DNA from: a virus
IMG/VR virus record: IMGVR_UViG_3300027805_000002
Reading direction: 5' to 3' (one strand)
DNA length: 60,176 bases
Shown: positions 6,232 through 46,419 of the stretch, piece after piece
Layout of the letters: each line of letters opens with the position of its first letter
Numbering within the stretch: position 1 is the stretch's first letter
The notes under the pieces: model-generated
What the model was told of the DNA's origin: nothing
Seen by the model: only the letters and a program-made list of their open reading frames with translations
The model's database searches: none
Made by a program: the position numbers and the translations under genes

Positions 6232-6239
6232 GAAACGCC

Positions 6240-8138: not shown

Positions 8139-8193
8139 TTTTGTACACAAGCAATACGTCAAGCTATATACTCAACAGTGCGAGGTATCTAAC

Positions 8194-8937: not shown

Positions 8938-8938
8938 C

Positions 8939-9175: not shown

Positions 9176-9275
9176 CCGTGAATACCCGTACAGAGGCAAC
9201 AGCTGTGAACTGCGAACACCGGAATCGGCTCGCACAAAGCACGCTCACCCTTGAGTCGGGCTCAGGAGAAATTTG

Positions 9276-10208: not shown

Positions 10209-10218
10209 AAGGTAAATC

Positions 10219-23867: not shown

Positions 23868-25484
23868 GTGACAGTACTTCGCGTTGCGCAGTTTGGTGGC
23901 GAGAACCGCGCCGCAAATCCCAAGCTGCTCCCGGAGGGGCTTGGCACCGTATCCACAAACCAAAAGCCCGGGCGCGGCGACCTCCGGCCATGGAAGTCGC
24001 CATCGACTGTGGCCACCATCCCGGCCGGCAGGGCGACGATCTATCGCTTGGGGCGCGACCTAACGGACGACACCCGTTATTGGCACAGCTGGACCACAAC
24101 TGTTCACGCCGTTCGCGGCTTCGACCTCGACGACACCACAGAGCGTACCTACTACTCTGATGGCACTGCGCCGAAGGTGATCAACAACCTCACCCTTGAC
24201 GGCACTGACCCTCAAGACAACCCTGCGGCGCCTAAAACGCTTGGCGTGCCGGCCCCAGCCTCCGCCCCCAGCGTCACTGGGTCAAACGGGAGCGCGACTA
24301 CAACCGAGTCGTACTTCTATGTCTACACCTACGTCAATACGCGTGGTGAGGAAAGCGCTCCGTCCCCGGTGTCCTCCATGGTCACCCGAACCATTGACGG
24401 CTCAACCTCGATCACCGGCTTTTCTGCGCCGCCCTCCGGCACGTACGAGTCGATCACCTTGATCCGGATCTACCGCACGCAGTCCACCTCGACAAGCGGC
24501 GCGGACTTCTTCTTCCTTCGCGAGATCGCGGTTGGCACAACCACTACGACAGACGACAACCGGGCCCTCGGGGAGACGATCGCCACCACGACTTGGCTGC
24601 TGCCGCCAACTAACCTGACGTTTCTGAAAGCACTATGGAATGGGATGTTGGCCGGCATCAGCGGCAATGGCGTCAGATTCTGTGAGCCCTATGTGCCGTA
24701 CGCATGGCCTGTGGCGTACGAGGTTCTCCCCCCTGACAGCAAGGCCGTTGCGCTCGGCGTCTTCGGACAACAGCTGTTGGTTCTGACCACCGGCAGGCCG
24801 CTGCTGGTGTCGGGCTCATCCCCCGAGTCTATGGATCAACAGCTGTTGGAGGTCCCGCACGCCTGCGTGGCCCCCAAGTCCGTGGTCAGCATGGGGTACG
24901 GCGTTGCTTGGGCGGCCGCCGACGGTCTGGTGTTCTATGGCTCTGGAGGGGCCAAACTACTAACGGCCGGCGTCATGACAAGGGAGGACTGGCAGGCAAT
25001 CGTGCCGTCCACCATCGTGGGCAGCTTCCATGAGGGCCTGTACTTCGGCAGCTACACAGTTCTTGGGACCACCAAGGCTTTCATGATCGACCCACAGAAC
25101 CCGCAGGGCATGCACTTCCTGAGCGCGGGCTACCCGGCCACCTACTACGACGACCTCCTTGACCAGCTGTATGTGCTGAACGGCACCAGCATTCAGAAGT
25201 GGGATGCCGGCTCAGCGATGACCTACGTCTATCGGTCGAAGACCTTCCATCAGCCTCATGCGGTGAACTTCGCCTGTGCTGAGGTGGTGGCAGATTCATA
25301 CCCTGTGACCTTCAGGCTCTATGCGGACGGGGCCCTCAGGCACACACAGACGGTGACTTCACAGACCCCGTTCCGCCTCCCCTCGGGGTTCCGCGCCCAC
25401 GACTGGCAGCTGGAAGTCGAAGGCACAGCTGCTGTGCAGATGGTCGCTATTGCGTCCTCAGTTGAGGAGTTGGCAGCCATATGA
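23868..25484 (+). CDS. tail structural protein (beta-propeller-like repeats)
   Basis: AGGAGG SD with a GTG start. The motif YFYVYTYVNTRGEESAPSP is common in podovirus tail proteins. Confidence 0.55.
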   Translation: MTVLRVAQFGGENRAANPKLLPEGLGTVSTNQKPGRGDLRPWKSPSTVATIPAGRATIYRLGRDLTDDTRYWHSWTTTVHAVRGFDLDDTTERTYYSDGTAPKVINNLTLDGTDPQDNPAAPKTLGVPAPASAPSVTGSNGSATTTESYFYVYTYVNTRGEESAPSPVSSMVTRTIDGSTSITGFSAPPSGTYESITLIRIYRTQSTSTSGADFFFLREIAVGTTTTTDDNRALGETIATTTWLLPPTNLTFLKALWNGMLAGISGNGVRFCEPYVPYAWPVAYEVLPPDSKAVALGVFGQQLLVLTTGRPLLVSGSSPESMDQQLLEVPHACVAPKSVVSMGYGVAWAAADGLVFYGSGGAKLLTAGVMTREDWQAIVPSTIVGSFHEGLYFGSYTVLGTTKAFMIDPQNPQGMHFLSAGYPATYYDDLLDQLYVLNGTSIQKWDAGSAMTYVYRSKTFHQPHAVNFACAEVVADSYPVTFRLYADGALRHTQTVTSQTPFRLPSGFRAHDWQLEVEGTAAVQMVAIASSVEELAAI

Positions 25485-28400: not shown

Positions 28401-30334
28401 CTGAGACAAACGCCGCGGGCTCTGCGTCTAGCGCAAGCACCTCTGCTACCAATGCGGCCAACTCTGCGACCAGCGCCGGCAATAGCGCCACGGCGGCATC
28501 TGGCAGCGCCTCGACTGCCTCGACTCAGGCCACGAACGCCTCGAACTCAGCAACTGCGGCCAACACCGCCAAAGTTGCCGCCGAGTCTGCGCGCGACAGC
28601 GCCGCGGGGAGCGCTACCGCTGCGTCTACAAGCGCGTCCAATGCGTCTACAAGCGCAAGCAATGCCGCCACTTCTGCATCTGCCGCCAACACTTCAGCAA
28701 CGAACGCGGCGACGAGTGAATCTAACGCGCTGACCTACAGGAACGATGCGTCGACTAGCGCATCCACCGCAACAACAAAGGCCAGCGAGGCGTCAACCAG
28801 CGCGGGCGCGGCGGCTACCTCCGCAACAAACGCCAACAACTCGGCGAGCGCCGCCTCAGGGTCTGCCAATACGGCATCGACAAAAGCCACCGAGGCGTCC
28901 CAGAGCGCGTCCTCCGCCAACACCTCCGCCAACAGCGCCTCGACATCAGCTAGCAATGCGCTGACCTACAGCAACAACGCCGCGACGTCGGCGTCGAACG
29001 CGGATGGGTCGGCCACCTCTGCGGCCACATCCCTGAATCAGGTCAGAGCAACCGCGACCGGGTTTGACTCGGCAATCGCGTGGAACTTCGACACCACGGT
29101 TGACGGTTGGACCAACAACTCGCAGGGCACGTTCACTTGGCAGTCAGGCGGCTTCGTCCGCATCGACGCCACCGGGGCCACGCCATACATTCGCAGCCCT
29201 GCCGGGCTAGCTATAGACGGATCAAAGAACACTTTGATCCGGGCTCGGGTCAGAAGAGTCGCGGGCTCGGGTTGGACAGGGCGGGCGTACTACACGACCT
29301 CAGGCCACGGCGAGACCACTGGCTTTTACAAGAGCATCCCTGACACGACGGTCACAAACGAGTGGCGCGTTTTGGAATGGGACATGGCCAACCTCACTGC
29401 CGGGGCGGCCGACTGGACATCGAGCACGATCACCAGAATACGACTTGACCTTGGTTTGACGACGGACGACTTCGACGTCGACTGGGTCACTGTGGGGCGC
29501 ATCGCCCCCATCGCCTACAGCGCGGCCATCGAGCAAGAGGCCACCGCAAGAGTCAACTCTGACAACAGCCTCTTCGCCCAGTACACCGTCAAGATCGACG
29601 CCAACGGCTATGTGTCTGGCTTTGGCCTCGCCAGCACCGCCATCAACGCCACCCCGACCAGCGAGTTCGCGGTACGGGCGGACAGGTTCTACATCGCCAA
29701 CCCGGCGGGAGCAGGCGTTGCCCCGGCCATGCCGTTCATCGTCCGCACGACGTCCACCACGATCAACGGCGTCAACGTCCCGGTGGGTGTGTACATCACC
29801 GACGGCTTCATCCAGAACGGCACGATCACCAACGCCCAGATAGCTGATGCAACGATCACCAACGCCAAGATAACCGACGTCACGATCACGGGCGGCAAGA
29901 TTGCCAACGCGACGCTGACCTCAGCCAAGTTCGCCGACACGGTGCAGTCCGACAACTACTCGGCAGGCAGCGCGGGCTGGATGATCAGCCGCAACACAGG
30001 CGCGGCGGAGTTTGGTTCGGCAACGATACGCGGCACCATCAACGGCGGCTCCTATACAGGGTATGCGTGGCCGGCGTCGGGAGGGACTGGATTCCACTTG
30101 GGGCCGAGCGGCCTGTTACTAGGCAACGCCAACGACGGCAAGTACTTTCAGGTTACCTCTGGCGGCGACCTGTACGCCCCACAGTTCAACATCGTCAACG
30201 GAGCGGCGTCCTTCAGCGGTGCGCTGAACGTGAAGAGCGCAGCGACTGGTTCGCGCGTCGAGATCAGCAATGCCGTCATCAAGATCTACGAGGGCGCGAC
30301 GCTGCGTGTGCAGCTTGGTAATTTGGCCGCGTAA
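25481..30334 (+). CDS. large tail fibre / host-specificity protein (1617 aa) with a J-like C-terminal region
   Basis: The C-terminal pattern AQYTVKIDANGYVSGFGLAS...EFAVRADRFYIANP resembles tip-attachment (J / DUF1983-type) proteins. Two Ser/Ala/Thr/Asn repeat blocks are present. Confidence 0.65.
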   Translation: MSRSDIPSPTAPNFDQRVRETLQTYLGRQGSPLDRGITVRDLLDTGVAKLKDGFTLGSGSSIPLEGTSTTTIVNNGGGGPAEEPDLTPPPTPSGFAATGGVNVVFITHDGPNYTQGHGHLRTRLYGAIYTGGALPTFNNAAEIAQFTGSVYSHPSNPSTTWHLWAKWETSDGVLSVSPAGGTNGVVVTTAVDVSLLLDALTGEITESQLFSALGARIDLIDAPTTGLVTKVTNLETAVGSTVSAAQSAAAAAASASAAAASEAAAILAESGAETASASAALSASDAAAAEAAAILAQSGAQTASASASQASSDAVAAKVAALAAQSGAETAEDNAVIARTSAETAASSASTSATSASNSATGAAGSASSASTSATNAATSATTAGNSASAASTSASSAATYATNAETASTAAQSAKVSAESARDNAAGSATAAATSASTATTKATEASQSATSAATSATTATTKASEASTSASQASTSATDASGSASSASTSATNAANSANAAGTSASNASTSATNAANSATNAAGSASTATTQATNAANSATSASNSASAASTSASSAATSATNAGNSATAAESSNLAAASSYGQAIRLNSNYDFGLGKTGWSTATADSTYSEIGGLIQTGGVTANSKLRIAGEAAGYWNRRIPIQTNRVYRIRFRVRSIGTTNSKVYAGVATFDADGVLQTAAPGTHRYCAASGVDVPSDGTWKVYTGTITGEAASATAFRTGSAFASPMFIVNYQQGSGFICEVDECSMEDITESTSAASSASAAATSASTATTKASEAASSASSANTSATNAATNASNAATSASQASTSETNAAGSASSASTSATNAANSANAAGTSASNASTSASQAATSATNAAGSASAASTSATNAANSETAAGGSATAASNSASGASTSATNAGNSATAANSAKVAAESARDAASGSATSAAGSASTATTKASEASTSASAANTSATNAATSASSAGTSATNASTSETNAAGSASSASTSATNAANSATSAGNSATAASGSASTASTQATNASNSATAANTAKVAAESARDSAAGSATAASTSASNASTSASNAATSASAANTSATNAATSESNALTYRNDASTSASTATTKASEASTSAGAAATSATNANNSASAASGSANTASTKATEASQSASSANTSANSASTSASNALTYSNNAATSASNADGSATSAATSLNQVRATATGFDSAIAWNFDTTVDGWTNNSQGTFTWQSGGFVRIDATGATPYIRSPAGLAIDGSKNTLIRARVRRVAGSGWTGRAYYTTSGHGETTGFYKSIPDTTVTNEWRVLEWDMANLTAGAADWTSSTITRIRLDLGLTTDDFDVDWVTVGRIAPIAYSAAIEQEATARVNSDNSLFAQYTVKIDANGYVSGFGLASTAINATPTSEFAVRADRFYIANPAGAGVAPAMPFIVRTTSTTINGVNVPVGVYITDGFIQNGTITNAQIADATITNAKITDVTITGGKIANATLTSAKFADTVQSDNYSAGSAGWMISRNTGAAEFGSATIRGTINGGSYTGYAWPASGGTGFHLGPSGLLLGNANDGKYFQVTSGGDLYAPQFNIVNGAASFSGALNVKSAATGSRVEISNAVIKIYEGATLRVQLGNLAA
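26205..27235 (+). repeat. Low-complexity S/A/T/N coding block 1 (ASTSATNAANSA-type)
   Basis: Direct reading of the translation. Confidence 0.8.
27750..29040 (+). repeat. Low-complexity S/A/T/N coding block 2
   Basis: Direct reading. Long stretches are near-duplicates of block 1. Confidence 0.8.
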
Positions 30335-33446: not shown

Positions 33447-34600
33447 TGGCAAACCTTGGCGGATTCGCGGGTGGCCTCGCCTCGGGCTACATGGCCGGCG
33501 AGCGGATGAAGCTCTCAAAACAGGAAGACAAGCGGGCCGATGAGATGGCCCAGATGCGCAGGACTGAGTTTGAGTTCCAGCAGACCGAGCGGGCCAGAGA
33601 GCGCGCCATCAAGGACGAGCAGGCGGCGATCTTCAAGAAATGGCAGGACGGCTGGGAAGAGGACGAGCCGTTCCAGACCACCAACGACGCCGGTGAGGTG
33701 GTTCAGGGTGTCCGCAAGAAGATGGTCAAGCCTGACCTGAATGACCCAATGGCTCTAGCCCGTATGCAGGTCGAGATCGGCACTGCCCGCGCCCGTCAGA
33801 CCGGAGATCCGGCAAAGATGGCCGAGGCCTACAAGTACTTGCAATCGGTCAAGGCAAACGAGGCCGGCAACGCTGTCTTCAACTACCTCACCCGCGACTC
33901 CTCGGAGCCTTCTCGCGTGAAGGCTGCAACCGCCCTTGGCATCTCGCCCGATGATTTCAAGGTCACGAAGGACAAAGACAACCAGCCCGTCGTCGAGACT
34001 GGGGGTAAGGTTGTGCCGCTGCGTCCGATGCTGGCTCTTGTGGCTGGTGGCAATGCTTACGAGGCGTACCTCGCCGACCAGAAGGCCGCTCAGGAAAGAC
34101 GATCCTCAGAGCTTGGCAATCTACAGAAGGAAGCCGCAATCCGCCAGACCGACGCCCAAACCAACCTCGCGATACCGGCTCAGGCGCGGCAGGCTGATGC
34201 GGGTGCTGCGGCCTCGCGGGCAAGGGCCGGCTACGAGGGCGAAGCCCGTAACTCCTTGACCGAGGATCGAAACCTAAGAGCGATCAGCGGTCAGGTGAAC
34301 AGCATATTCCCGCCCCTGAAGGTCAAGGACCCTGTCACCGGCACCGAGCAGGTCACCCCCAGCCCGGCTGCGAACTATGTCAACCAGATCGTGCTGGCCA
34401 ACCCGGGCAAGGAGCGGGCAGTCGCCCAGCAGGCCATCGCCGCAGCCCAGCAGGTTGAGCAGGAGGCGCGTCGCAGACTCACCGCGCTGCGGGCAAACCC
34501 AGAGACATACAAGCAGGTCCTCAAGAACGCCAAGACGGACGAGAACATCTTGAACGTCTACATGCAGGACGGCCTCAGCAAGCTAGGGAAGCCCAAGTAA
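33446..34600 (+). CDS. putative internal virion protein
   Basis: ATG after a GGGAGG SD. The protein is charged and helical. Its stop overlaps the giant ORF start (TAATG). Confidence 0.45.
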   Translation: MANLGGFAGGLASGYMAGERMKLSKQEDKRADEMAQMRRTEFEFQQTERARERAIKDEQAAIFKKWQDGWEEDEPFQTTNDAGEVVQGVRKKMVKPDLNDPMALARMQVEIGTARARQTGDPAKMAEAYKYLQSVKANEAGNAVFNYLTRDSSEPSRVKAATALGISPDDFKVTKDKDNQPVVETGGKVVPLRPMLALVAGGNAYEAYLADQKAAQERRSSELGNLQKEAAIRQTDAQTNLAIPAQARQADAGAAASRARAGYEGEARNSLTEDRNLRAISGQVNSIFPPLKVKDPVTGTEQVTPSPAANYVNQIVLANPGKERAVAQQAIAAAQQVEQEARRRLTALRANPETYKQVLKNAKTDENILNVYMQDGLSKLGKPK

Positions 34601-37600
34601 TGGCAAACCTCATCTCCTCCGACGAACAACTGTTTGGTGGGGGAGTCGCCCCCGCCCCGACCCGCAATCTGGGCGGCGGTGGGTCGCTCATCGGCTCGGA
34701 TGAGGACCTGTTCGGCCTATCTGCCATGCCGGCAGCGGCGCCAAAGAGGACGGCCCTCGGCACGCTCGGGGACGTCGCGAACGTCGCCGCCAAGGGCGTC
34801 ATCGGGGTGGGTGAGGGCGTTGTTGGTCTGGCCAACATTCCGACCTTTGGCTACGCCGGCAAGGCGATGGAGTCGATTGGGTACGACCCCAAGAGGTCAA
34901 GAGAGATCCTCAACGACCTACTCCAGTCTGACGCGCAGAAGGCCGCTCAGCAGGAGGTAGATGCCGCAGAGGGCTTCACCGGCACTGTCAAGACAGCCCT
35001 AGAGAACCCCTCCACGATCTTGACGGCAGCGGGCGAGTCCCTGCCGTCTATGTTCGCTGGCGGCGCGATAGCCAAGGGGCTCAAGGGCCTCACCAACCTT
35101 GGTGGCTTTGCCCGGGCTGCGATCGGCGAAGGTGCCATCTCTGGCGGCCAGACCGCGGAGCAGATCCGACAGCAGACTGAAGACGGCACGCTCAGCCTTG
35201 GGCAGACTGCGATTGCCGTAGGATCTGGTGCGCTCACGGGCCTGCTGGGGTATGCCGGCGGGAAGCTCGCAAGGCGTCTCGGGATCGACGACATCGACGC
35301 TGTGGTTGCCGGGGTCAACGCGTCTGGGGCTGCGGCGAAGAGGGGGCTTGCGACAAGAGTTCTTGGCGCGGCGGTGCAAGAGGGCGTGATCGAGGAACTT
35401 CCTCAGTCGGCTCAGGAGCAGATCGCCCAGAACATTGCGCTGGACCGTCCGTGGGACGAGGGCGTCGACAAGGCTGCGGCCATGGGCATGCTGGCCGGGG
35501 CAGCGACTGGTGGCGGCTTCCAGCTGATGCCTCAGGGGCGCAGTGATCAGCCCCGGCAGTCTGGTCGCTCGGCGGAATTTGTCTCCCAAGCTTTCACCGA
35601 CGTAGGTGGCGCTGGGCAGACGATGGACGAGCTTGGCCGAGCCAAGGGCGCTGTGGCCTTCGCGCTGGCCAACCTAAATGACGACGAGGCTGGGCAGATC
35701 ATCTCCTCTGTCTCTTCCGGCAACGAACAGCTGATGCAACAGCTGTCCGCCGCGAGGGCAGACGCAGCACTCATCTCTTCGGGTCGCCAGTTCGCTCAAG
35801 ACAACCCGATTCAGTTCGCCGCCGTCAGTGACATGCTGCGAGTGGACTCTGGCTTGAACGAGGCGGACCCCAGCGACTCGACCTCGGCGCTGATTTCTCA
35901 GGAACTCAGCCGGGCTTTCCCTAGCATCTACCAGCAGCAGACTCAACAGGGCCAACAGCCTCAGCCGCCGCAGCAGCCGGCTGTCGACCCGGCCGGCGTC
36001 ACCAACACCGCCGGGTTCATCCCGGAGCCCCTTGAGCAGATTCAGGCCCAGATCACCGCTGTGACTGAAGGCCGCAAGCCCGCCGTGGTCGTCGGCATCC
36101 AAGAGGCGCAGAACGCCAACTTTGGCGGCCTGAGCACCGGCATCGCCACTGACCCCAACACAGGTGAGCAGGCGGTCGTGGCTGCGGCGGACGACGCCAC
36201 AGTGCAGGCGGCTGTCACCCGGACCGCCGAGGTGGGGCTGGCCCAAGCCATGGGCGAGGTGCTCGGCTACACCCAGCCGGGTCTGACCCAGCAGCAGGTC
36301 CCGGCCGCCGTGGTCCAGCAGGTCGACAACAATAGCGGGCAGATCCTCAGCGAGGAGGCTGTCACCCCTGAAGCCGCGGCTTCCGTGAACCGGGTGCCGG
36401 GGACTACGGCGCGGGTTGTGACCCCCGAGCAGGCCCTGCAAAGCCGCATGGAGCGGACCTCAACAGCTGTTGTTCAGCCTGAATTGGCCTCTACAGAGCC
36501 GGATTCGGTTGTTTCGCCTGTCGCCCAAGAGCAAAACGCTGTTCCCGCCGACACCACAGCTGTTCTGCCGGAACCCACAGCTGTCAATTGGGCGGCCACC
36601 GGCAGGACGTCCGGGCTGGTCAGCCTGCTCAACCGCAGCAACGGCCTTCAGGATGGCTCACCGAACTCGATCGACCCGAGCTCGGTCCGCGAGGTGGACA
36701 TCCGCAGCGTCAAGGATCGCAAGCAGCGCCGGCAACTGGGCCAGCTGGCCAAGGCGGCCAAGCTTGCCTTCGGCGTCGACCTGATCTTGGTGGACACCCC
36801 GGCCGGCGCGGTCAAGCGCATGGACGGCTCGGACTTCAACCAGTTCAACGGCGTCGCCCTGCCTGAGTCCAAACAGCTGTTCCTGAACGTCCGCGCCGCG
36901 ACGCCCCTGAACACGCTGGGCCACGAGCTTGCCCACATCCTTGAGGTGCAGGCCGCAGAAACCTACGCCCGCCTCGAAGACACCATCCTGACCCGGGTCC
37001 GCTTCGGCGCCGCCAAGCGCCTCCAGACGGCGTTGCAGCAGGCTGTACAGGCCGAGTCTCAGGGCGCCGTCGACATCAACCAGCGGGTTGCCGAGCTACG
37101 GTCGGAACTGATCGCTGAGTCCATCGGTGAGCTGACGGCAGACCCCAAGCTTTGGCGCGACATCTTCCAAGGCATGGGCACGGACTCGGCTCAGGTCAAG
37201 TCCCTGTACGACACCGTCATCGAGGCGGTCGGCCGTTTGGCCAAGGCATTCACCCGTGTCGGCTACATCGATGGCCTGAAGGACATGCAGGCTGTCCGCC
37301 GGGCGATCACCGACGCCTATGTGTCGTGGAGCGCAGCCCAGCAGGGCGCAGCCCCGGCACAGGTAAGCGCGCAGTCCTCTGCCCCGCCCCCGCGGGAGGC
37401 GGCAAGGTTCGACCGGTTGCCGCAGAAGCGCTTCTCGCCAGACAACTTCCCCGTAACCCTGACCGATGACGATCCGCTTCTACGGGAGACGATCACCATC
37501 TCTGGGCGGGCGCGACAGGATTTGCGCCGGGGAATCGTCGACCAGCACTTCCAGAGCACCAGCCCCAACCAGTACGGCAGGCCGATCCTCTTCCTAATGG

Positions 37601-40600
37601 GTGGTGGCGGTGGCGCGGGCAAGACAACCGCCATGGCCAAGCTGGCAGGCGCTGGGGTGATCCCTGACACCTCCACAGCTGTCACCGTCAACGCCGACGA
37701 AATCAAGGAGATGATCCCTGAGTTCGGCAAGATCAAGTCGGTCGGCGACTGGCGGGCCGCAGTGACGGTCCACGAAGAGTCGTCCCTGCTGACCAAGGCG
37801 GTTCAGCTGCGGGCGATGGGCGCGGCGGCGGATCAGGTCGAAGAGTCCCTAAAGCCCTATCTGCCGACAGCCTCGTCCGGGAAATACAACCTCGTCATCG
37901 ACGGCACTATGGCTGATGAGAGGAAGGGCCTACGCCTAATCTCGGACGCCGTGGACCGCGGCTACCACGTCGTGATGATGGGGGTGATCACCAAGCCGTC
38001 TGACGCAGTGGCCAGAGCGAAGTCCAGAGGTGAGCGAAGCGGCAGGTTCGTGCCGAACGACATCCTGTTCAACGCCCATGCTGGCTTTCTGTCTGTCCTT
38101 CAGGCATACTCGAACGTATTAGGGACCAACCTCCACCTTGTGGACAACAGTGGCCCCCAGCCGGTGATGACGGCGTTTGATGACGCCGCAAAGGAGAAGA
38201 TCCGTGAGTACATCGCAGATGCCGGGCGAGGCGCAGAAGAGATCCGAGCCAGCCGCTCCGGCCGAGCAGCAGAACCCGCTGCTGGGCAGCCTAAATCAGG
38301 CGCTCAAGAACTTCAACAACGCACCACCCGAGGACTTCCAGAAGCTACTGCGCGAGATGCAGCGCAAGGAGGAAGAGAAGGGCAAGGGCAGTCCGCCGAT
38401 GGTCTGGCCCGAGGAGTAGTCAAGCTTAGCCGCGCCAACATTCAGAGGGCGGCGAGCGGGGACCAGTCTGCCTCCGCGATGGAGGTCATGGGCAAGGCGC
38501 CCGACTACCTCGCTCGTGTCGGCATCAACCGCGAAGCGCCTCTGGTCATCGAGGCCGACGTCATCTACAAGGTCGCCACCGGCAAGGGCTACACCGGGAC
38601 CGAGAAGCGCACGCCGCTGACGGTTGACCAAATCCAGCAGCTGCCGCAGCTGCTACGCAACCCCGCCGCAGTCTTCGACGACCCCACCGACAAGAACAGC
38701 GTCGTCGTGATGACGAGCCTTGTCGTGGATCAGTTTGATCCGGTGGTCATCGCCATCTCCAAGGACGCCAAGTCAAACCGGGTGGACATCGTTCGCGTGT
38801 CCGGCTCGATCGAGATGAACAAGGGCGCCTACTCCCCGATCAAGACGGCGTTCGGCAAGGAGTGGGACAAGTTTGAGTCGTGGATGCGCAAGGAGAACGT
38901 CCTGCGCTACATCAACCCGAAGAACATCGACGCCGCCGTGCAGGCAGGGATGCCGAAGAGGCTGGCCCGCTCTCTGCGCGAGGCGCAGATCCTGTCGAAG
39001 GGGAGGGCGTACGTAGAAGGAGGGACCGCGTCACTTGCCCAGATTGCCTATTCCCCCCAGCAGCGTGAGGTAGCTTCAGGCAGCAACCCGGGGAGCCTCC
39101 GTCAAGCCCCTCCAGCGAGTATTGTGGCACTACCCGCGGGTAGTGTCAACCCGGCCAGCGGTCGCAAGGTCCTTGGCAAGAAGGTGCTGGCGCAGCGGGT
39201 TCTGGACCGCAACCCGATCTACGACGCGCTTCCCGAGAACTTGCGGTCCGCCTCGGTGGTTGAGCCCCTATACCGCAACGGACCGCTGTTCGCCTTCCCG
39301 TCCAACGCCGGCAAGATCAACACCCGCATTGGCGCCTACCTAGAGGAGCGCACCAAGAAGGCCCTCGGCCGGGAGCTTGATGTTGCTGACCCCGAGGACC
39401 AGAAGCTTGTTGCGAAGATGGCGGCGGCTGAGGCGGTCGAGGCCATGATCCGCGACGAGAACGCGTCCGAGTGGTACGACGAGACGATGGTCAAGGCCTT
39501 CGAGCTTGCGGCCTTGGTGCATCCGGAGATCAAGACCGATCCGCGGGCCAAGAACGCGTTTGCCTTGGTGACCGCCATCACGAGTCAGGGCCTCAATGTT
39601 GAGGACAACATGGCTTCCTCGCTCGAAATCTACGAGCAGTGGGTGGCCAGCAGCAATGACGCCAACAAGCGGTCCTTCCCTGAGCGCGGCGTTGGTAAAT
39701 CGTCCGGCGCGATGGCGAACAACTTCAAGAAGGCCAACCGCCTCATCGACGAGATGGGCTGGGACGAGTTCATCTCGTTCATGAACAGTTCGTACTCGAA
39801 CCGGTTCATGGAGAAGGTCTTCCGCGGCAATGTCGGGGGCGAGGGTCAGGACAACATCGTCTATGGCTCGGGCATCTTCGGGGCCAAGATCGGCAACGGC
39901 TTCTTCCAGAACCTGATGGGCAACTTCAAGCCCATCACCATGGACATGTGGTTCAGCCGCACGATCGGCCGCCTGTCAGGCCGCGTGCGCGCCTTCACCA
40001 ACGAGTTGATGGCGGACCAGCTGGAGAAGCTGCGCGCCGCCTTCGTGGAGGGGGGCGACGCCACGCGGTCGCTTCAGCCCGAGAGCTTTGGTGACCTCAT
40101 CGACGAGGATCTATTCCTGTCCGACGATGACTACGCCATGGGGATAGCCGAGGAGATCCGCCTCGCGCACGAGAAGGACTACAAGGCCAACCGTGCTGGC
40201 TTCGACAACCGTACGCGGTTCAAGTCGGCGCTAGTCAACGCGGCCGAGGCTGTTTCTGATACCTTGTACGGCCTGCGCGACAGCCCCGAGGGAGCAGCCC
40301 ATCGGGATCAGCTGCGCCAGATCTCGCTGATGGCGATCGAGGAGATCCGCCAATCAACGGGCGTCAATGTTGAGCCAGCCGCGTTTCAGGCCCTGATCTG
40401 GTATCCGGAGCAGCGCCTGTACAGGAAGATGGGCGGCAAGCAGCGCGTCGTGGGTCAGGATTACGTCGGCGCGATCACCAAAGAACTTCTACGCCGGGGA
40501 GTCGGAATTGAAGAAATCGAAGCAACCAAGCGGGCCGTTTCAGAACAGCTCCGAGCAAGTCGTACACGACCGCAGGGAGAGGGAGATGCTGGAGGACGAC

Positions 40601-43600
40601 CCGAATCTGGACAAGATGGCGCAGCGGGTACGAGAAGCAATGAAGGCCGGGTTGTTCAAGAGTCAGCGCAAGAGTTCTCCGGACAAAACCTGATCTTCGA
40701 GGTCGCCCCTGACCCGGGCAACCAAGCTCTGACTGCTGCATGGAACAGCCTGCCCGCTGACAAGCGGCTGAAGATCAGCCAGAAGCTCGCCAAGCGCTAC
40801 AGCAAGAGGGTCCTGAGCGCCCTCGGCATGACCGGTGAAATGGTCTCGCAGATTGGCGGCTACATGGACTTCACCAACCCAAGCCTGACGATTCGTCTGG
40901 GCAAGGGGGGTGACCCGGTGTTGGCCGCCGGGATGCTGGGGCACGTGCTGTCGCAAGACTCCATGGTCGTCATCTCTGAGACCTCTTTCAAGGGCGGAGA
41001 ACTCACGGGCGCGGTTGAAATCGACGTGCCCGCAGACATCACTCTGGAGCAGGCCGACAAGCTCTATCAGGAACTGCGCAAGATCAAGGGCGCGGACGGC
41101 AACAGCCTTGTTGGCGGACACACCACCGCCTCAGGCAAGATGGCCATCCTCAATTACTCCGGCCTGAGTAATGAGGAGTTGGCGTCTCGCATTGACCGGC
41201 ATTTGGCCGGCGGCTACACTGTTCGATACAGAGACGTATTTGTCTCGTTCCCCGAAAAGCAGGACTACAACTATGCCGGTGATCAACGAGACAGGCCAAC
41301 CGCTGCCAGACGGCCATCCTTTCAAGGGGACGCGAATCGCCTTCGGGCAGCAGCCTCGTCCGACATCGAAGCCGAGCTCCGCTCCGCAGGCGTCAAGTTC
41401 TCCCGCACCCAAGGTGTTGCACGACTTGCAGAACCTGCCGGAGGACCCGGTACTGGGGGTGATCAGGGCCCGGGATCGGTACGCGGAGCAGTCCACTACG
41501 GACGATCAGGCTTCCTAAGCCAGCTGACGGGGTCGGCATTCGGCTCCGGCATCCGCGGGGCTGAACAGCAGCGGCTTTCTGAGCCCGGGGTCGACCCACG
41601 CATCAAGAAGCGGGTCTACTTCTACCTGCCGGCTGAAGGAGGCATTCCTCAGCCTGAGATCGGCCTTGGTTCGCACGTCTACGAGGCGGACCTGTCAAAC
41701 CTCTACGACCCGGAGTCAATGCCGGCCGTCAAAGGTCAAGGCAACGCACTTGAGTCGGCGATCCTTGATGCCGGCTACCGCGGGTACATCAACCGAGAGC
41801 AGGGCACAGCTGTTGTCCTGAATGAAGATGTGCCGGTGCAGTATCAAGGCACCCGTGACGGCAAGGTCGTCGTGCCCCGCCGCATCCAGCGGTTGGAGCC
41901 GAAGATCGCAACCCGGGAGGAGCGCGGTGAGTCGGTTCGCAAGGCTGACCAAGTCATCAGCCTGAAGGCCAAGGAGGCTGCGCAGGCCGCCGCCCCAAGC
42001 TTCCGCATGGAGTATGGCGAGGCGCGGGTCAAGACCAGAGAGAAGGACGCCGCCAACGCCGCCCTTGAGGCCGCAGGCTCCCAGTTCCGCTTCAGCCGCC
42101 CCCTCAAGGCCATGACCGTGCAGGAGGCGCTGGATATGGCGCGCACTGGTCAGCCCGCCTACACGCTAGGGGATGCGGTAGAGCGTGGGCAGTGGGCAGA
42201 GGCCTACCGGCTAGCCAAGAACCAACAGCAGCGCCAACAGCTGTTTGGTAGGCTCGGTGACTGGCTGATCGAGACCTTCGCTGACGCCATGATTCCGGTC
42301 AAGCGTTGGATCGATGCCTTGCCCTTGAGCGGCAGCCTGAAGCAGCGCCTCAGTGGCGACCTGTACCGGGCCGCGGCACTGCGCTCAACGATGCAGAAGG
42401 AACTGAAGCAGCAGTTCACCGAGCCCATGTTCCGCGCCATCGAGGCCGCCGCCAAGAGCAGCAAGCTCACGTCGGATCAGGTCAAGATGCTGGCCGGCTA
42501 CTGGATGTCGGCCAAGTACGCGCCCAAGGCTAACGCGTGGCTGATCACCAAGGACCGCACAGCACTCATTGCTGCCCAGCAGTCTGGCGATCCTACGGCG
42601 ATTGCCGAGGCTCAGAAAAGCCTCAACGACCGGCTCGCTGACGTCAACGGCGTGATCGGCGCAACACGGGCCCGCGGCGTGGCTGGTGGCTTCAACAACG
42701 CCGAGGCTGCGCAGATGGTGGCCGACGTCGAGAGCAAGATCAGTCGACAGCTGTTGGACGAGATCTCGTCGCACGTCTACGGGATGATGGCGTGGAAGCG
42801 CGCTCGCGACATCCGCTCTGGCAAGGTCAGTCAGACAGCTGTCAACAGCTGGCCGAACCACCGCGACTACGTGCCGCTTACGGGCGACCCGCGCTGGAGC
42901 CCGGAGTCGGATGACGTGTTCTCAACCGGCGGGGCCCTAAACCAAGAGGCCGACAAGGCGATCAACGGGCGCAAGGACAGTGTGGCTGATGACGCCATCG
43001 ATGCGGCCTTCACAGCTGTGGTGAAGTCGGTCAACTTCAGCGCGATGCAGGACTTCAAGCGCTCATTGGCGAGGGCCTACAACGAGGCTGCGGCGCAAGG
43101 CGTCGACATCGGCCTCAAGCGCGAGCCCGTCACCGGGATCATCCGCCCCGGCGATGACGTGGTCATCCACCGAGACACCTACACCGCCCCTAACGGGCTG
43201 CAAAGCTCACAGGCGGTGGCCTACCGGTTCGACGACAAGGCCGTCATCGGGGCCCTAAAGAAGGAGAACATCGAAACCACGAACGCCCTGCTCAGCACAG
43301 TCTCCACTCCGACACGGTGGTACGGCCGGCTGGTCACACAGTTCATGCCGATGTTCGCCCCGATCAACCTTGTGCGCGACGTCTGGGAGCGGTCTGAGCT
43401 TGTCCGCACCCGCAAGCTGCTGGATCGCAATGGCCAGCAGATCGACACCGACCGGGTGGCCAGAGCAGCGATCGCCGAGACCATCAACCCGCGCCTGTGG
43501 AAGGCCAGCTTTGCCTCGAACTTCAACCGTGCCGGCCAAAGCCCGGAGCGGGCGGATCTGGAGGAAATGATCAGGCTGGGCGGCTCATCGGTCTGGGGCG

Positions 43601-44925
43601 ACTACCTTGCCCGCAACTCAGGCGACCTTGAGGCCGAGCTTCGGCAGAGCTTTGGCAAGACCGCGGCGGTTGGTCGACTCACCAACACAGCTGTGGAGTC
43701 GTACAACAACACCTTTGAAATGATCGCGCCGCTGTCTATCTACAGGGCGCTGAAGGCTCAAGGCATGGAGGCCAAGGATGCGGCCGCCGCCACGCTGGAT
43801 CTGATGAACTTCAAGAAGCGCGGCTCAGCCATGCCAGCGATCCGCGCCCTGTACGTGTTCGCCCAACCTGCGGCTACGTCGGGCTACAACCTGATGCAGT
43901 ACCTGTCCACCGCCAAGGGCAAGAAGCGCTTTGCGGCACAGCTGTTGATCGGCACCGCGCTGTACGCCTTCCTGCGCGGCATGTGGGGCGACGATGAAGA
44001 TGATGAGGAACTCGGCAACAAGCTCGACAACCTCAGCAACTTCACGGTTGAGCGCTCGATCCCGATCCCGATCGGCGACCGCGTGGTGAAGATCCCGGTC
44101 GGCTTCGGAGCGCCGCAGCTGGCGTGGTCGGCCTCAGGCATCCTGAACCGCTGGCAGAGTGGCCGCTACGACACGGCCGACGCTCTGGGTGAGCTAGCTA
44201 AGGGCTGGGTGAAGTCCGTGTCCCCAGTGGCGCCATCAGACATCGAGCTTGCCAAGCGGCCAGCCAACTGGTTGATGATGACCTTCACCCCGACCGTCCT
44301 GCGGCCCCTGACCAGCATTGCCTCGGACCAGACCGCCTTTGGGCAGCCGCTGACCCCGGTGTTCAAGAGCGCGGACAAGTTCCGCAGCGAGCAGGCTCGC
44401 CGGACCACACCACGGGCGTATACCGAGGTGGCCAAGGAGATCCGCGAGATGACCGGGGTCGACCTGTACCCGGATCACATCAAGGCGCTGGCGGATGGCT
44501 ACCTCATCGGCCCGATGCGCGAGATCACCTCCTCGCTCATCGAGAACCCGTCGAAGGAGCAGCGCGGCGAGAAGGGCCGGATGCCGCTGGTGGCCTCGAT
44601 CGTCGACAACGTCAACGACCGCCAGATCCTGAACAGCGTCTACTACCGGACCCGGCAGGATCTGGAGGACGCGAACCGGGAGTACGAGTCACGACTGCGC
44701 GACGGCACCCTCGCGGGATGGCTGGACGGCGAGAAGTTCCAAAAGGTGCAGGCCTACAAGCGGATGGAACTCGTTGAACGCAAGATGGGCAGCCTGCGCG
44801 GCGTGCTCACCAAGCAGCGCGACCGCATGGATGCGGACGTGTACGCAGACCGCTTGCAGGAGATTGAAACGCGGGTGGATGAGGAGAGAAGGAAGGCCCT
44901 CGTGGCAGCCGTCCAGATGAGGTGA
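34600..44925 (+). CDS. giant polyvalent virion protein (3441 codons as one ORF) with a zincin HExxH motif and a Zeta-toxin-like kinase domain; may be a fusion or a multi-product locus
   Basis: HELAH lies at 36922-36936. The P-loop GGGGGAGKTT at 37600-37629 is followed by NADEIK...YNLVIDGT...GYHVVMMGV...GRFVP, a Zeta-toxin pattern. Three +1-frame islands are listed as separate features. Confidence 0.6.
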   Translation: MANLISSDEQLFGGGVAPAPTRNLGGGGSLIGSDEDLFGLSAMPAAAPKRTALGTLGDVANVAAKGVIGVGEGVVGLANIPTFGYAGKAMESIGYDPKRSREILNDLLQSDAQKAAQQEVDAAEGFTGTVKTALENPSTILTAAGESLPSMFAGGAIAKGLKGLTNLGGFARAAIGEGAISGGQTAEQIRQQTEDGTLSLGQTAIAVGSGALTGLLGYAGGKLARRLGIDDIDAVVAGVNASGAAAKRGLATRVLGAAVQEGVIEELPQSAQEQIAQNIALDRPWDEGVDKAAAMGMLAGAATGGGFQLMPQGRSDQPRQSGRSAEFVSQAFTDVGGAGQTMDELGRAKGAVAFALANLNDDEAGQIISSVSSGNEQLMQQLSAARADAALISSGRQFAQDNPIQFAAVSDMLRVDSGLNEADPSDSTSALISQELSRAFPSIYQQQTQQGQQPQPPQQPAVDPAGVTNTAGFIPEPLEQIQAQITAVTEGRKPAVVVGIQEAQNANFGGLSTGIATDPNTGEQAVVAAADDATVQAAVTRTAEVGLAQAMGEVLGYTQPGLTQQQVPAAVVQQVDNNSGQILSEEAVTPEAAASVNRVPGTTARVVTPEQALQSRMERTSTAVVQPELASTEPDSVVSPVAQEQNAVPADTTAVLPEPTAVNWAATGRTSGLVSLLNRSNGLQDGSPNSIDPSSVREVDIRSVKDRKQRRQLGQLAKAAKLAFGVDLILVDTPAGAVKRMDGSDFNQFNGVALPESKQLFLNVRAATPLNTLGHELAHILEVQAAETYARLEDTILTRVRFGAAKRLQTALQQAVQAESQGAVDINQRVAELRSELIAESIGELTADPKLWRDIFQGMGTDSAQVKSLYDTVIEAVGRLAKAFTRVGYIDGLKDMQAVRRAITDAYVSWSAAQQGAAPAQVSAQSSAPPPREAARFDRLPQKRFSPDNFPVTLTDDDPLLRETITISGRARQDLRRGIVDQHFQSTSPNQYGRPILFLMGGGGGAGKTTAMAKLAGAGVIPDTSTAVTVNADEIKEMIPEFGKIKSVGDWRAAVTVHEESSLLTKAVQLRAMGAAADQVEESLKPYLPTASSGKYNLVIDGTMADERKGLRLISDAVDRGYHVVMMGVITKPSDAVARAKSRGERSGRFVPNDILFNAHAGFLSVLQAYSNVLGTNLHLVDNSGPQPVMTAFDDAAKEKIREYIADAGRGAEEIRASRSGRAAEPAAGQPKSGAQELQQRTTRGLPEATARDAAQGGREGQGQSADGLARGVVKLSRANIQRAASGDQSASAMEVMGKAPDYLARVGINREAPLVIEADVIYKVATGKGYTGTEKRTPLTVDQIQQLPQLLRNPAAVFDDPTDKNSVVVMTSLVVDQFDPVVIAISKDAKSNRVDIVRVSGSIEMNKGAYSPIKTAFGKEWDKFESWMRKENVLRYINPKNIDAAVQAGMPKRLARSLREAQILSKGRAYVEGGTASLAQIAYSPQQREVASGSNPGSLRQAPPASIVALPAGSVNPASGRKVLGKKVLAQRVLDRNPIYDALPENLRSASVVEPLYRNGPLFAFPSNAGKINTRIGAYLEERTKKALGRELDVADPEDQKLVAKMAAAEAVEAMIRDENASEWYDETMVKAFELAALVHPEIKTDPRAKNAFALVTAITSQGLNVEDNMASSLEIYEQWVASSNDANKRSFPERGVGKSSGAMANNFKKANRLIDEMGWDEFISFMNSSYSNRFMEKVFRGNVGGEGQDNIVYGSGIFGAKIGNGFFQNLMGNFKPITMDMWFSRTIGRLSGRVRAFTNELMADQLEKLRAAFVEGGDATRSLQPESFGDLIDEDLFLSDDDYAMGIAEEIRLAHEKDYKANRAGFDNRTRFKSALVNAAEAVSDTLYGLRDSPEGAAHRDQLRQISLMAIEEIRQSTGVNVEPAAFQALIWYPEQRLYRKMGGKQRVVGQDYVGAITKELLRRGVGIEEIEATKRAVSEQLRASRTRPQGEGDAGGRPESGQDGAAGTRSNEGRVVQESAQEFSGQNLIFEVAPDPGNQALTAAWNSLPADKRLKISQKLAKRYSKRVLSALGMTGEMVSQIGGYMDFTNPSLTIRLGKGGDPVLAAGMLGHVLSQDSMVVISETSFKGGELTGAVEIDVPADITLEQADKLYQELRKIKGADGNSLVGGHTTASGKMAILNYSGLSNEELASRIDRHLAGGYTVRYRDVFVSFPEKQDYNYAGDQRDRPTAARRPSFQGDANRLRAAASSDIEAELRSAGVKFSRTQGVARLAEPAGGPGTGGDQGPGSVRGAVHYGRSGFLSQLTGSAFGSGIRGAEQQRLSEPGVDPRIKKRVYFYLPAEGGIPQPEIGLGSHVYEADLSNLYDPESMPAVKGQGNALESAILDAGYRGYINREQGTAVVLNEDVPVQYQGTRDGKVVVPRRIQRLEPKIATREERGESVRKADQVISLKAKEAAQAAAPSFRMEYGEARVKTREKDAANAALEAAGSQFRFSRPLKAMTVQEALDMARTGQPAYTLGDAVERGQWAEAYRLAKNQQQRQQLFGRLGDWLIETFADAMIPVKRWIDALPLSGSLKQRLSGDLYRAAALRSTMQKELKQQFTEPMFRAIEAAAKSSKLTSDQVKMLAGYWMSAKYAPKANAWLITKDRTALIAAQQSGDPTAIAEAQKSLNDRLADVNGVIGATRARGVAGGFNNAEAAQMVADVESKISRQLLDEISSHVYGMMAWKRARDIRSGKVSQTAVNSWPNHRDYVPLTGDPRWSPESDDVFSTGGALNQEADKAINGRKDSVADDAIDAAFTAVVKSVNFSAMQDFKRSLARAYNEAAAQGVDIGLKREPVTGIIRPGDDVVIHRDTYTAPNGLQSSQAVAYRFDDKAVIGALKKENIETTNALLSTVSTPTRWYGRLVTQFMPMFAPINLVRDVWERSELVRTRKLLDRNGQQIDTDRVARAAIAETINPRLWKASFASNFNRAGQSPERADLEEMIRLGGSSVWGDYLARNSGDLEAELRQSFGKTAAVGRLTNTAVESYNNTFEMIAPLSIYRALKAQGMEAKDAAAATLDLMNFKKRGSAMPAIRALYVFAQPAATSGYNLMQYLSTAKGKKRFAAQLLIGTALYAFLRGMWGDDEDDEELGNKLDNLSNFTVERSIPIPIGDRVVKIPVGFGAPQLAWSASGILNRWQSGRYDTADALGELAKGWVKSVSPVAPSDIELAKRPANWLMMTFTPTVLRPLTSIASDQTAFGQPLTPVFKSADKFRSEQARRTTPRAYTEVAKEIREMTGVDLYPDHIKALADGYLIGPMREITSSLIENPSKEQRGEKGRMPLVASIVDNVNDRQILNSVYYRTRQDLEDANREYESRLRDGTLAGWLDGEKFQKVQAYKRMELVERKMGSLRGVLTKQRDRMDADVYADRLQEIETRVDEERRKALVAAVQMR
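38219..38419 (+). CDS. +1-frame island 1 inside the giant ORF (66 codons; alternative C-terminus or embedded small gene)
   Basis: The +1 frame reads MPGEAQKRSEPAAPAEQQNPLLGSLNQALKNFNNAPPEDFQKLLREMQRKEEEKGKGSPPMVWPEE. By hand count, 56 of 66 codons are G/C-ending here against 26 of 67 in the main frame. Confidence 0.35.
   Translation: MPGEAQKRSEPAAPAEQQNPLLGSLNQALKNFNNAPPEDFQKLLREMQRKEEEKGKGSPPMVWPEE
40586..40693 (+). CDS. +1-frame island 2 inside the giant ORF (35 codons from the ATG; signal starts about 40553)
   Basis: The +1 frame reads MLEDDPNLDKMAQRVREAMKAGLFKSQRKSSPDKT. An AGGGAG lies 6 nt before the ATG. Main-frame codons here are mostly A/T-ending. Confidence 0.3.
   Translation: MLEDDPNLDKMAQRVREAMKAGLFKSQRKSSPDKT
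41273..41518 (+). CDS. +1-frame island 3 inside the giant ORF (81 codons)
   Basis: The +1 frame reads MPVINETGQPLPDGHPFKGTRIAFGQQ...KVLHDLQNLPEDPVLGVIRARDRYAEQSTTDDQAS. The signal is mixed in the middle (41350-41410), where the main frame looks better. Confidence 0.3.
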   Translation: MPVINETGQPLPDGHPFKGTRIAFGQQPRPTSKPSSAPQASSSPAPKVLHDLQNLPEDPVLGVIRARDRYAEQSTTDDQAS

Positions 44926-44965
44926 AAAGCCAATGGAATCAAGCACTTGGGGCATGGCCCTCCGG

Positions 44966-45009
44966 TTGCAAATCCGTCTAGCCCGGTTCGACTCCGGGCC
45001 GCGCCTCCA
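44966..45009 (+). other. attP core: 3' 44 nt of a tRNA-Cys(GCA) gene (anticodon loop through CCA)
   Basis: TTGCAAATCCGTCTAGCCCGGTTCGACTCCGGGCCGCGCCTCCA is near-identical to the 3' part of E. coli tRNA-Cys as I recall it. The upstream sequence cannot form the acceptor or D arms. Confidence 0.7.
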
Positions 45010-45223: not shown

Positions 45224-45261
45224 AGACGGATTTGACAGTCCGTCCATTGGTATCATGGGCC

Positions 45262-46419
45262 ATGAACACCAAACTACCCACCGGGATTACCCTCACCCCC
45301 AGCGGCACCTACCAGTCGGTGATCCACCACCGCAACCTGCCCAAGGGCCGCCTGTTCCGCAACTTCAAGACGCTGGCTGACGCCGTGCGCGGCCGCGAAC
45401 TGCTGCTCAAACAGCTGGACAACAACACGGCCGTGGCCCAAGAGCCGCGACACGTCCAGATCTCCACCGTGCTGCTGGAGTACTTGGAGGCCGACAACGC
45501 CAAGATCGCCAAGACCGACCGGGCCTTGGTCTTCCTGCTCCAGCGGCAACTGACCGTGGTGCTGAAGGAGTTGGACATCCGCTGGGTCGAGAACTGGGTG
45601 CGCGACATGAAGTGCGTAGACAACCTCGCCCCCAGCACGATCCGCCGCAAGGTGGAGTGCGTCGCCCGAGCCTTGGATTGGTGGAACCGCACCGAGCACC
45701 CGGGGCTCAAGCTCGGCAACCCGTTCCGGGACCTGCCCCGCGGCTACAGCACCTACGGCGAAAACGACAAGCTGCTGCCCGGGCGCGCTGCCAAGCGCGA
45801 CGTTGAGCGAGACCGCCGGCTGCTGCCCGGCGAGGATGAGCGCATCGAGGCGGCCATCAACAACTGGCACAACCCCAAGCGAGAGCGCCCCCTGAACTGG
45901 GATGACCGGGCCGACTTCCTGATGATCTACCGATTGATCGTGAACACCGGCCTGCGCCTGCGCGAGGCGTACACGCTGCGCCTTGAGGACCTGCGTCTGG
46001 ATGAGCGCTACATCTTCATCCGCCCGGGCAAGACAGGGCGCAGCCGCACAGTGCCGGTGACCCGCCAGCTGGAGGGCTGGATCCGCGACTACCTAAAGGA
46101 CCACAGCAAGGCCTCACAGCTGTCAGACCCGATCTTCCCGTTCTGGGGTGGCAGCTTGGACGAGAAAGCCCTGACCTTGGTGTCGAGACGGGTGTCGGCA
46201 AGGTTCAGCACCCTGTTCAGCTACGCCGAGTGCGAGGACCTAAGGGAGCATGACCTGCGCCACGAGGCTACCTGCCGCTGGATGATGAAGAGGAAGCCAG
46301 ACGGGAACTGGCTGTACCGGGCCGAGGAGGTGCGCCGGATCACCGGCCACAAGTCAGTGCAGGTCTTCGAGCGCTACCTGTCGCTCAGGGGCTGTGATCT
46401 GGCGGCTGAGCTTGACTAG
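45262..46419 (+). CDS. int: tyrosine integrase
   Basis: The catalytic-region pattern is ...LRLREAYTLRL...HDLRHEATCRW...ITGHKSVQVFERYLSL. The ATG is at 45262; the track ORF starts at a TTG at 45232. Confidence 0.85.
   Translation: MNTKLPTGITLTPSGTYQSVIHHRNLPKGRLFRNFKTLADAVRGRELLLKQLDNNTAVAQEPRHVQISTVLLEYLEADNAKIAKTDRALVFLLQRQLTVVLKELDIRWVENWVRDMKCVDNLAPSTIRRKVECVARALDWWNRTEHPGLKLGNPFRDLPRGYSTYGENDKLLPGRAAKRDVERDRRLLPGEDERIEAAINNWHNPKRERPLNWDDRADFLMIYRLIVNTGLRLREAYTLRLEDLRLDERYIFIRPGKTGRSRTVPVTRQLEGWIRDYLKDHSKASQLSDPIFPFWGGSLDEKALTLVSRRVSARFSTLFSYAECEDLREHDLRHEATCRWMMKRKPDGNWLYRAEEVRRITGHKSVQVFERYLSLRGCDLAAELD

Follow-up and report, generated by a model that had tools for sequence, protein, structure and literature searches.

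The stretch of DNA analyzed here, the virus record IMGVR_UViG_3300027805_000002 of IMG/VR (60,176 nucleotides, nt; hereafter the window), contains on its plus strand an uninterrupted open reading frame (ORF) that begins with ATG, extends from 34600 to 44925 and encodes a giant protein of 3441 amino acids (aa), which is likely to be a phage-type polyvalent protein carried as cargo by the virion. A preliminary description of the window, made from the letters alone, had already delimited these 3441 codons, and translation, in which no internal stop appears, bears this out; the motif positions that it gave were all recomputed and are correct. The start codon of the giant ORF overlaps, within TAATG, the stop codon TAA of the ORF upstream, which codes for 385 aa and belongs to the structural block, and on the downstream side a spacer of 306 base pairs is followed by an integrase gene. 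Further upstream, on the same strand, are found the genes of the large terminase (4726), an SU10-type portal (6222), the major capsid protein (10219), an internal virion protein (23868; phrog_511, E 1.6e-134), a tail fibre protein of 1617 aa (25481) and a virion structural protein (32388). This block (terminase-portal-capsid-internal protein-tail fibre) ends with the giant ORF, after which comes the integrase, in agreement with the earlier description of this ORF as the last of its module.

Polyvalent proteins were defined by Iyer et al. (2017; J Bacteriol 199:e00245-17; PMC5512222), and the criteria considered here are theirs: between 2 and 15 distinct effector-type domains in a single polypeptide, a phage or conjugative element as its source, with a context of virion or transfer genes, and delivery with the DNA into the recipient cell; on delivery the evidence is indirect and comes from the N-terminal homologue H66 gp60 described below. 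In their account the zincin metallopeptidase (MPTase) is a hub domain, zeta-like kinases also occur, fused in phages to MuF domains, and LPD38 is reported only in those polyvalent proteins that are of phage type. The giant protein carries three domains above the Pfam cut-offs, namely Zeta_toxin (93.6 bits vs. a curated cut-off of 22.3), MuF_C (53.9 bits vs. 27.6) and LPD38 (81.5 bits vs. 27), to which are added a zincin-like domain and three conserved modules (Table 1), and its gene is a phage gene located at the end of the structural block. The profile searches for Zeta, MuF_C/PBECR and LPD38, together with the zeta-like kinases listed in that paper, lend support to the polyvalent-protein concept invoked in the preliminary description, and LPD38 supplies a name within the C-terminal third of the protein, where none had been given.

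Table 1. Features of the giant ORF and of the region that separates it from, and includes, the integrase gene, in the coordinates of the window.
Feature	Residues (aa)	Position (nt)	Strand	Remarks
Gene of the giant protein, a likely polyvalent virion protein		34600..44925	+	TAATG coupling to the upstream structural ORF
Twin N-terminal peptide, LISSDEQLFG / LIGSDEDLFG	4-13 / 30-39	34609-34638 / 34687-34716	+	duplicated 8-mer
Conserved N-terminal domain, Gly/Ala-rich	53-530	34756..36189	+	phrog_30335, E 4e-43
Zincin-like metallopeptidase domain	691-912	36670..37335	+	HExxH at aa 775-779 (36922-36936)
Zeta-toxin-family P-loop kinase	988-1170	37561..38109	+	PF06414, E 1.4e-26; K1008, D1033, D1101-G-T1103
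Linker poor in hydrophobic residues	1211-1256	38230..38367	+	
MuF_C/PBECR RNase-like module	1273-1450	38416..38949	+	Pfam core aa 1335-1443; PF18819, E 2e-14
mid1-2, all-alpha, very highly conserved	1543-1990	39226..40569	+	many invariant residues
mid3, alpha/beta	2026-2265	40675..41394	+	tandem ferredoxin-like in the model; KFSR directly after
mid4, beta-rich	2290-2420	41467..41859	+	mobile among relatives
Conserved C-terminal scaffold	2496-3441	42085..44922	+	starts at FRFSR; ~950 aa; collinear in 10 relatives
LPD38 domain	3140-3321	44017..44562	+	PF18857, E 1e-22
tRNA-Cys(GCA) 3′ fragment	 	44955..45009	+	between the giant ORF and the integrase; read from the sequence
Tyrosine integrase	 	45232..46419	+	Pfam Phage_integrase, E 9e-20; phrog_1

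In the zincin-like domain the HExxH motif reads HELAH (aa 775). Its relatives were obtained through an exhaustive HMMER search with aa 641-1840, which gave 2999 matches at E<=1e-3, and in an alignment of 17 sequences over ~220 residues, at 30-49% identity, H775, E776, H779, E836 and E840 are invariant, the last two being the candidates for the third metal ligand. A hidden Markov model built from this alignment finds 35 copies of the domain at E<1e-5 among the 150 best matches, located at varied positions within related giant proteins, and all 35 keep the HExxH; the domain is, in other words, both conserved and mobile, and the motif singled out in the preliminary description is no chance pentapeptide. 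The AlphaFold2 model made on the alignment is confident (predicted local distance difference test, pLDDT, 88.5) and presents, in this order, an N-terminal helix (17-34 in the numbering of the model), a small sheet (strands 37-73), the HExxH helix (79-94), two inserted helices and the helix that carries E836 and E840 (136-155). As modelled, the order of these elements matches the MPTase described for the polyvalent proteins (Iyer et al., PMC5512222), whose definition asks for a helix and a small sheet ahead of the HExxH helix and, in a helix further on, for a Glu that serves as the third metal ligand.

Below the Pfam thresholds, members of the zincin clade match M48 (2e-4), SprT-like (5e-4) and M78 (9e-3) and, taken member by member, also eCIS_core (five members), WLM (four members), M91 and M10; the recurrent and best-scoring of these weak matches are zincin families. 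Pfam MPTase-PolyVal gives no match, even by way of ten divergent homologous copies of the domain, and against the PDB sequences the zincin profile finds chance-level matches alone. From the invariant HExxH and Glu residues, the topology of the model and the weak zincin-family matches we conclude that the zincin-like domain is genuine and belongs to a clade for which Pfam has no model, and the assignment first made from the motif is supported.

The kinase is a sound member of the Zeta family, and is probably active. Its Walker A motif, GGGGGAGKTT (aa 1001, nt 37600-37629), contains the Lys K1008 and is followed by NADEIK (aa 1031), YNLVIDGT (aa 1096), GYHVVMMGV (aa 1121) and GRFVP (aa 1148). 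A profile of 13 kinase segments matches, in the PDB, zeta (3e-12), PezT (8.5e-12), AvrRxo1 (2e-6) and the polynucleotide kinase Pnkp1 (4e-5), which, together with the score of PF06414, upholds the Zeta/PezT-like assignment of the preliminary description. K1008, D1033 and T1103 are invariant in the 13 sequences; D1033, within NADEIK, aligns with D67 of zeta (in IDNDTF; D66 of PezT), and T1103 aligns with T118 of zeta. The toxins of the epsilon/zeta and PezAT systems, themselves UDP-GlcNAc 3′-kinases, belong to the same Pfam family, and the kinase keeps their Walker A motif, their catalytic Asp and the Thr of (E/D)GT; unlike those toxins, it does not form part of a two-gene toxin-antitoxin module, it is embedded in 3441 aa, it does not keep the UDP-contact residues E100, R120 and T128, and no antitoxin gene of the epsilon/PezA type adjoins its ORF, the other small ORFs of the window not having been scanned for antitoxin families. 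A stand-alone kinase of the same clade adjoins a topoisomerase gene, in what looks like the setting of a conjugative element.

Zeta toxins phosphorylate UDP-N-acetylglucosamine (UNAG), a cell-wall precursor, and the roles of their catalytic and UNAG-contact residues are taken from the zeta-UNAG structure paper. In the profile alignment, T118 (as T1103) is the single member of the contact set E100, T118, R120 and T128 that is kept, E100, R120, T121 and T128 being aligned to K, A, D and L. Of the two targets suggested in the preliminary description, cell-wall precursors and nucleotide pools, the former is not supported by the contact residues.

A possible, although tentative, alternative accepts the same architecture and supposes that the kinase is AvrRxo1-like, acting on nicotinamide adenine dinucleotide (NAD), another adenine nucleotide or a nucleotide-type signal rather than being a UDP-GlcNAc kinase, in which case its delivery at infection would disturb NAD- or nucleotide-dependent immunity or metabolism in the host, and not the synthesis of the cell wall. 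AvrRxo1, a type III effector of the zeta family and likewise a delivered kinase, keeps the ATP-binding residues and not the UNAG-binding ones, and converts NAD to 3′-NADP. The clade of the giant-protein kinase has invariant motifs of its own (PER in an N-terminal position, PEY, RAA and VHEESS), of which PER and H-x-E-S-S line up with PERRKL and VHSESS of AvrRxo1; the two kinases share an Asp in place of E116 of zeta, D67 and T118 alone among the UNAG-contact residues of zeta have counterparts in the clade, and a non-lytic target would suit a temperate phage better. However, the shared motifs were read by eye from the profile alignment, the clade profile reaches ~49 bits to zeta/PezT vs. ~30 bits to AvrRxo1, and ng_zeta1, which holds UDP-sugars in a rotated mode, shows that the manner of binding them varies within the zeta family, such that the loss of contact residues does not exclude a UDP-sugar substrate. 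AvrRxo1 also differs in its delivery by type III secretion and in having an antitoxin of its own, Arc1 (AvrRxo2).

After the linker comes the MuF_C module, where the Pfam match covers aa 1335-1443 and a second match, to phrog_616, covers aa 1277-1403. The PBECR domains, of which MuF-C is one, are predicted RNases (Iyer et al., 2017, PMC5512222), and the canonical PBECR catalytic set consists of a His (or Arg) within the N-terminal helix together with a Ser/Thr in strand 4. There is no His in aa 1260-1460, nor any His column in an alignment of seven sequences (the query and six others), which leaves room for an Arg/Lys-based variant. Because the module is without His, the canonical PBECR active site is absent; nuclease activity is doubtful, and the module is probably non-catalytic and may bind RNA instead of cutting it. 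The copy of the domain in MuF of phage Mu itself is regarded as inactive by Iyer et al. (PMC5512222). Of the “nuclease-like” segment noticed earlier at 38420-38900, what holds is the membership of an RNase-like family (Pfam MuF_C), and what becomes doubtful, in the absence of His, is the nuclease activity.

The boundaries between modules present a motif of their own. The two F(R/K)FSR junction-like motifs of the preliminary description are found at aa 2266 (KFSR, 41395-41406) and aa 2496 (FRFSR, 42085-42099), and a third, related site, KLSR, at aa 1275 (38422-38433). In 151 giant proteins, related and therefore non-independent, the tripeptide FSR was observed 97 times vs. 45 ± 6 in shuffles, approximately a two-fold enrichment. 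Of the seven aligned homologues, six have an xFSR or xLSR at the start of the MuF_C module and the seventh has FSM there, and in many homologues a motif of the xFSR type stands at the end of the mid3 and mid4 modules. The motif is real as a pattern and, as far as the alignments allow it to be read, marks module boundaries.

Between the MuF_C module and the C-terminal region are found three modules without a name (mid1-2, mid3 and mid4), the first two of which form a supermodule of ~720 aa (aa 1543-2265; 39226-41394) with dozens of invariant residues, such as W1625-Y1626-D1627, among sequences that are 35-54% identical, and with a GPKIGxGF loop. At least 127 of the best 150 HMMER matches, which come from related protein clusters, contain it, and so do giant or internal proteins of T7-like freshwater podophages, encoded beside genes of M23 peptidase and tail fibre. 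It has no match in Pfam, PHROG or NCBIfam, even in its short stand-alone homologues, none among the PDB sequences, and no significant one among the PDB folds (Foldseek). The AlphaFold model is of moderate confidence overall (mean pLDDT 73.4), with roughly 80 of the first 450 residues scoring well; this first part is all-alpha in the model, and behind it come a tandem ferredoxin-like domain and then a beta-rich one. In the BFVD library of viral folds the supermodule finds only pieces of other entries named “large polyvalent protein”, and these entries also carry RelA/SpoT, ART, NAT or pyrophosphatase domains. For mid3, the fold matches are weak and comprise ferredoxin-like/ACT proteins, the S-adenosylmethionine (SAM) lyase of T3 (8bb1_E; probability 0.87, E 0.15) and, in BFVD, a phage SAM hydrolase (probability 0.96, E 0.06), a resemblance too weak for mid3 to be taken as a SAM lyase or SAM hydrolase. 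A lysozyme/transglycosylase-like nature for mid1-2 was dropped, no such fold match having been found.

Stand-alone forms of these modules exist. On an ENA contig of 158 kb (L004), which belongs to a different phage, the stretch 5331-10401 carries the portal, a Zeta_toxin protein of 557 aa, an ORF of 313 aa, a stand-alone mid1-2 homologue and Phage_Mu_F, and because these are neighbouring genes, the pairing of Zeta with the mid module and their location in the head module recur there in split form. A second stand-alone mid homologue lies within a tail and adaptor block of SU10 type.

When nine segments of the giant protein were mapped onto the 150 best HMMER matches, a sub-family was found to share the N-terminal domain, the zincin (~aa 650-950) and the C-terminal ~950 residues, and to vary in the middle. 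The closest architecture, that of a protein of 3627 aa (P0003), consists of the N-terminal domain, zincin, Zeta, MuF_C, DUF7178, mid4, ART-PolyVal and LPD38, and relatives carry, in place of this cargo, other enzymes (ART, RelA/SpoT, NAT, pyrophosphatase). The modules of this protein have, then, been shuffled between two more constant ends.

At the N-terminal end, aa 79-291 have 35-43% identity to 38 phage records (tblastn), the relatives being giant proteins of the Pseudomonas phages 8P, F116, H66 and LKA5 and of some marine phages. One of them, H66 gp60 (3787 aa, a “PLxRFG domain-containing protein”), is homologous to the giant protein via its N-terminus, and its record notes that its presence in the virion was verified by mass spectrometry, which fits, by an indirect route, the operon position and the translational coupling of the giant ORF. 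H66 gp60, the F116 protein and 8P_023 resemble the giant protein in being the product of the giant last gene of a structural block, with a homologous N-terminal domain and a twin peptide; they differ from it in that their records are annotated with methyltransferase-like domains and the N-terminal region alone matches (tblastn). None of the other structural ORFs of the window, when compared with H66, matches. Still larger than the giant protein is another member of this carrier family, the 5145-aa product of the gene 8P_023 of Pseudomonas phage 8P (L003, 8797-18687+; 15,438 nt), whose record calls it a structural protein and which has both the N-terminal domain and the twin peptide.

The twin peptide just mentioned is an acidic-hydrophobic sequence found in two copies at the extreme N-terminus of the giant protein. 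Of the 18 proteins that have this N-terminal scaffold, 16, with H66 gp60 and 8P_023 among them, contain in their first ~45 aa a duplicated 8-mer that is conspicuous (empirical p<=0.02 vs. random windows from the same proteins), with the copies 19-30 aa apart. The peptide varies from one phage to another (KPWEEF, IDFDALM, AYDVDxWI, LPDVGQEP), and inside each protein the two copies co-vary. We propose that it could be a bivalent packaging or docking signal for a phage-specific partner.

The other constant end, the C-terminal scaffold, is rich in conserved motifs and contains one hydrophobic helix; with tblastn, Pasteurella phage Pmp11 matches it at 34% identity across 78% of the query, and proteins of Stx, Vibrio and Burkholderia phages show a weaker or distant similarity. 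The LPD38 domain within it contains KIPVGFGAPQLAW, with a motif that reads PVGFG and that is probably the counterpart of the PLxRFG motif. The NCBIfam model of PLxRFG gives no match at E<=1 in the whole giant protein, and the literature on PLxRFG consists of annotation mentions.

It could also be thought that the protein is mainly a structural ejection or tail protein, a mechanical channel or plug for the delivery of DNA, whose enzyme-like domains have decayed. The Gly/Ala-rich N-terminal region, the large conserved scaffold with its one hydrophobic helix, the MuF_C without the canonical His and the place of the ORF among the genes of internal virion and tail proteins would all be in keeping with such a function. 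Nevertheless, we regard this as improbable, given that the residues of the kinase and of the HExxH/Glu set are invariant at 30-49% identity, which is not to be expected of decaying remnants, and that the relatives replace the cargo by other enzymes, as described above.

With regard to the genome as a whole, the spacer in front of the integrase gene contains, at 44955-45009, a tRNA-Cys-like fragment, recognized by eye, that corresponds to the 3′ two-thirds of the molecule, with the anticodon loop TTGCAAA, the T-arm and the acceptor end (CCGCGCCTCCA); this tRNA-Cys(GCA) fragment is probably the core of the phage attachment site (attP). In the same int-proximal spacer ARAGORN finds no complete tRNA, and no Rfam family is present. 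Because there are phage genes on both sides of the spacer, the window has the appearance of a temperate phage genome in its excised form. Rhizobium podophages have portals with ~33% identity to that of the window; for Roseobacter and HMO-2011-type phages the figure is 27-28%. Megablast against phages gave no match; a scan of genome contigs for close relatives found none, nor did the whole giant protein match any PDB sequence, and a word-indexed homologue search with aa 651-1250 was also without result, low-complexity words having probably swamped the candidates. The 1617-aa tail-fibre ORF (25481-30334), which follows the gene of the internal virion protein and comes before the small ORFs upstream of the giant gene, has many overlapping tail-fibre PHROG matches and no Pfam match.

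This same location beside attP and int, a common site of genes of lysogenic conversion, together with the fact that the Zeta proteins are classical toxins of toxin-antitoxin systems, could suggest that the ORF encodes a prophage toxin or exclusion factor that is not packaged, expressed in the lysogen from the int-proximal end, in the position of a “moron”. Such an origin seems very improbable: the ORF shares the strand of the structural operon, to which the start-stop overlap joins it, no promoter-like site appears around its 3′ end, and there is no antitoxin gene nearby; the protein has homologues in the virion-verified H66 gp60, through its N-terminus, and in large ORFs of other phages, through its C-terminus, and LPD38 is characteristic of the polyvalent proteins of phage type.

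Several points nonetheless weigh against the protein being a polyvalent virion cargo. It forms a singleton cluster that comes from one metagenomic contig of 62.6 kb, and approximately 40% of its length has no assigned function. The HExxH region has no curated Pfam profile above threshold, and among the PDB folds its model finds no significant match (Foldseek; the best natural protein has an E of ~0.1, and helical-repeat designs dominate). The MuF_C module, without His, may be non-catalytic. Finally, lysogeny would be put at risk if a temperate phage injected a classical lytic Zeta toxin, and no antitoxin gene of epsilon type is found nearby.

If the giant protein is, as we consider likely, a polyvalent protein of the virion, the following sequence of events may be inferred. 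The polypeptide would be made together with the proteins of the particle, packed in the capsid and most likely ejected with the DNA. The twin peptide, the N-terminal domain rich in Gly/Ala, the zincin and the ~950-aa scaffold with LPD38 would form the carrier, responsible for packaging and ejection, and the exchangeable cargo in the middle would comprise the Zeta kinase, with its catalytic core intact, the MuF_C, the ~720-aa module and the small beta-rich module. The zincin would probably cut the polyprotein into its working pieces, or else act on proteins of the host, and the kinase would phosphorylate a small metabolite of nucleotide type at the start of infection.

P1 DarB is a giant protein packaged in the capsid and injected. 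The giant protein would resemble it, and also the virion RNA polymerase of N4, which carries an MPTase domain as well, as a large capsid-carried enzyme that acts at the onset of infection; it differs from them in enzymatic content, which in their case is methyltransferase/helicase and RNA polymerase, respectively. Like the polyvalent proteins of Iyer et al., it brings together many effector domains, the context of virion genes, the zincin hub, PBECR/MuF-C, LPD38 and a zeta-like kinase. Unlike those, its exact combination and order of domains is not on record here, as its singleton cluster indicates, and its zincin clade and its 720-aa module are outside the Pfam models. The polyvalent design has been known since 2017; what is new here is a zincin clade that Pfam does not model, a Zeta clade with AvrRxo1-like traits, a MuF_C that is probably non-catalytic, a widespread module of ~720 aa and the twin N-terminal peptide.

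One could go further and suppose jointly that the kinase is an AvrRxo1-like kinase of NAD or adenine nucleotides that forms with the 720-aa module an anti-immunity cargo, and that the twin peptide is a general label, not described before, for loading giant cargo proteins into the capsid. The joint action of kinase and module is suggested by their recurrence both in one polypeptide and as neighbours beside portal and MuF. Taken as a whole, this supposition is speculative and rather unlikely to hold in all its parts.

In summary, the window offers a complete example, in a temperate phage, of what is likely to be an injected multi-enzyme protein, with a conserved carrier and a cargo that can be swapped. 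The substrate of a kinase of the Zeta family delivered by the virion and the role of the conserved ~720-aa module are both experimentally approachable and could matter beyond this locus, and the twin peptide, if it is a packaging signal, could serve to load foreign proteins into capsids.

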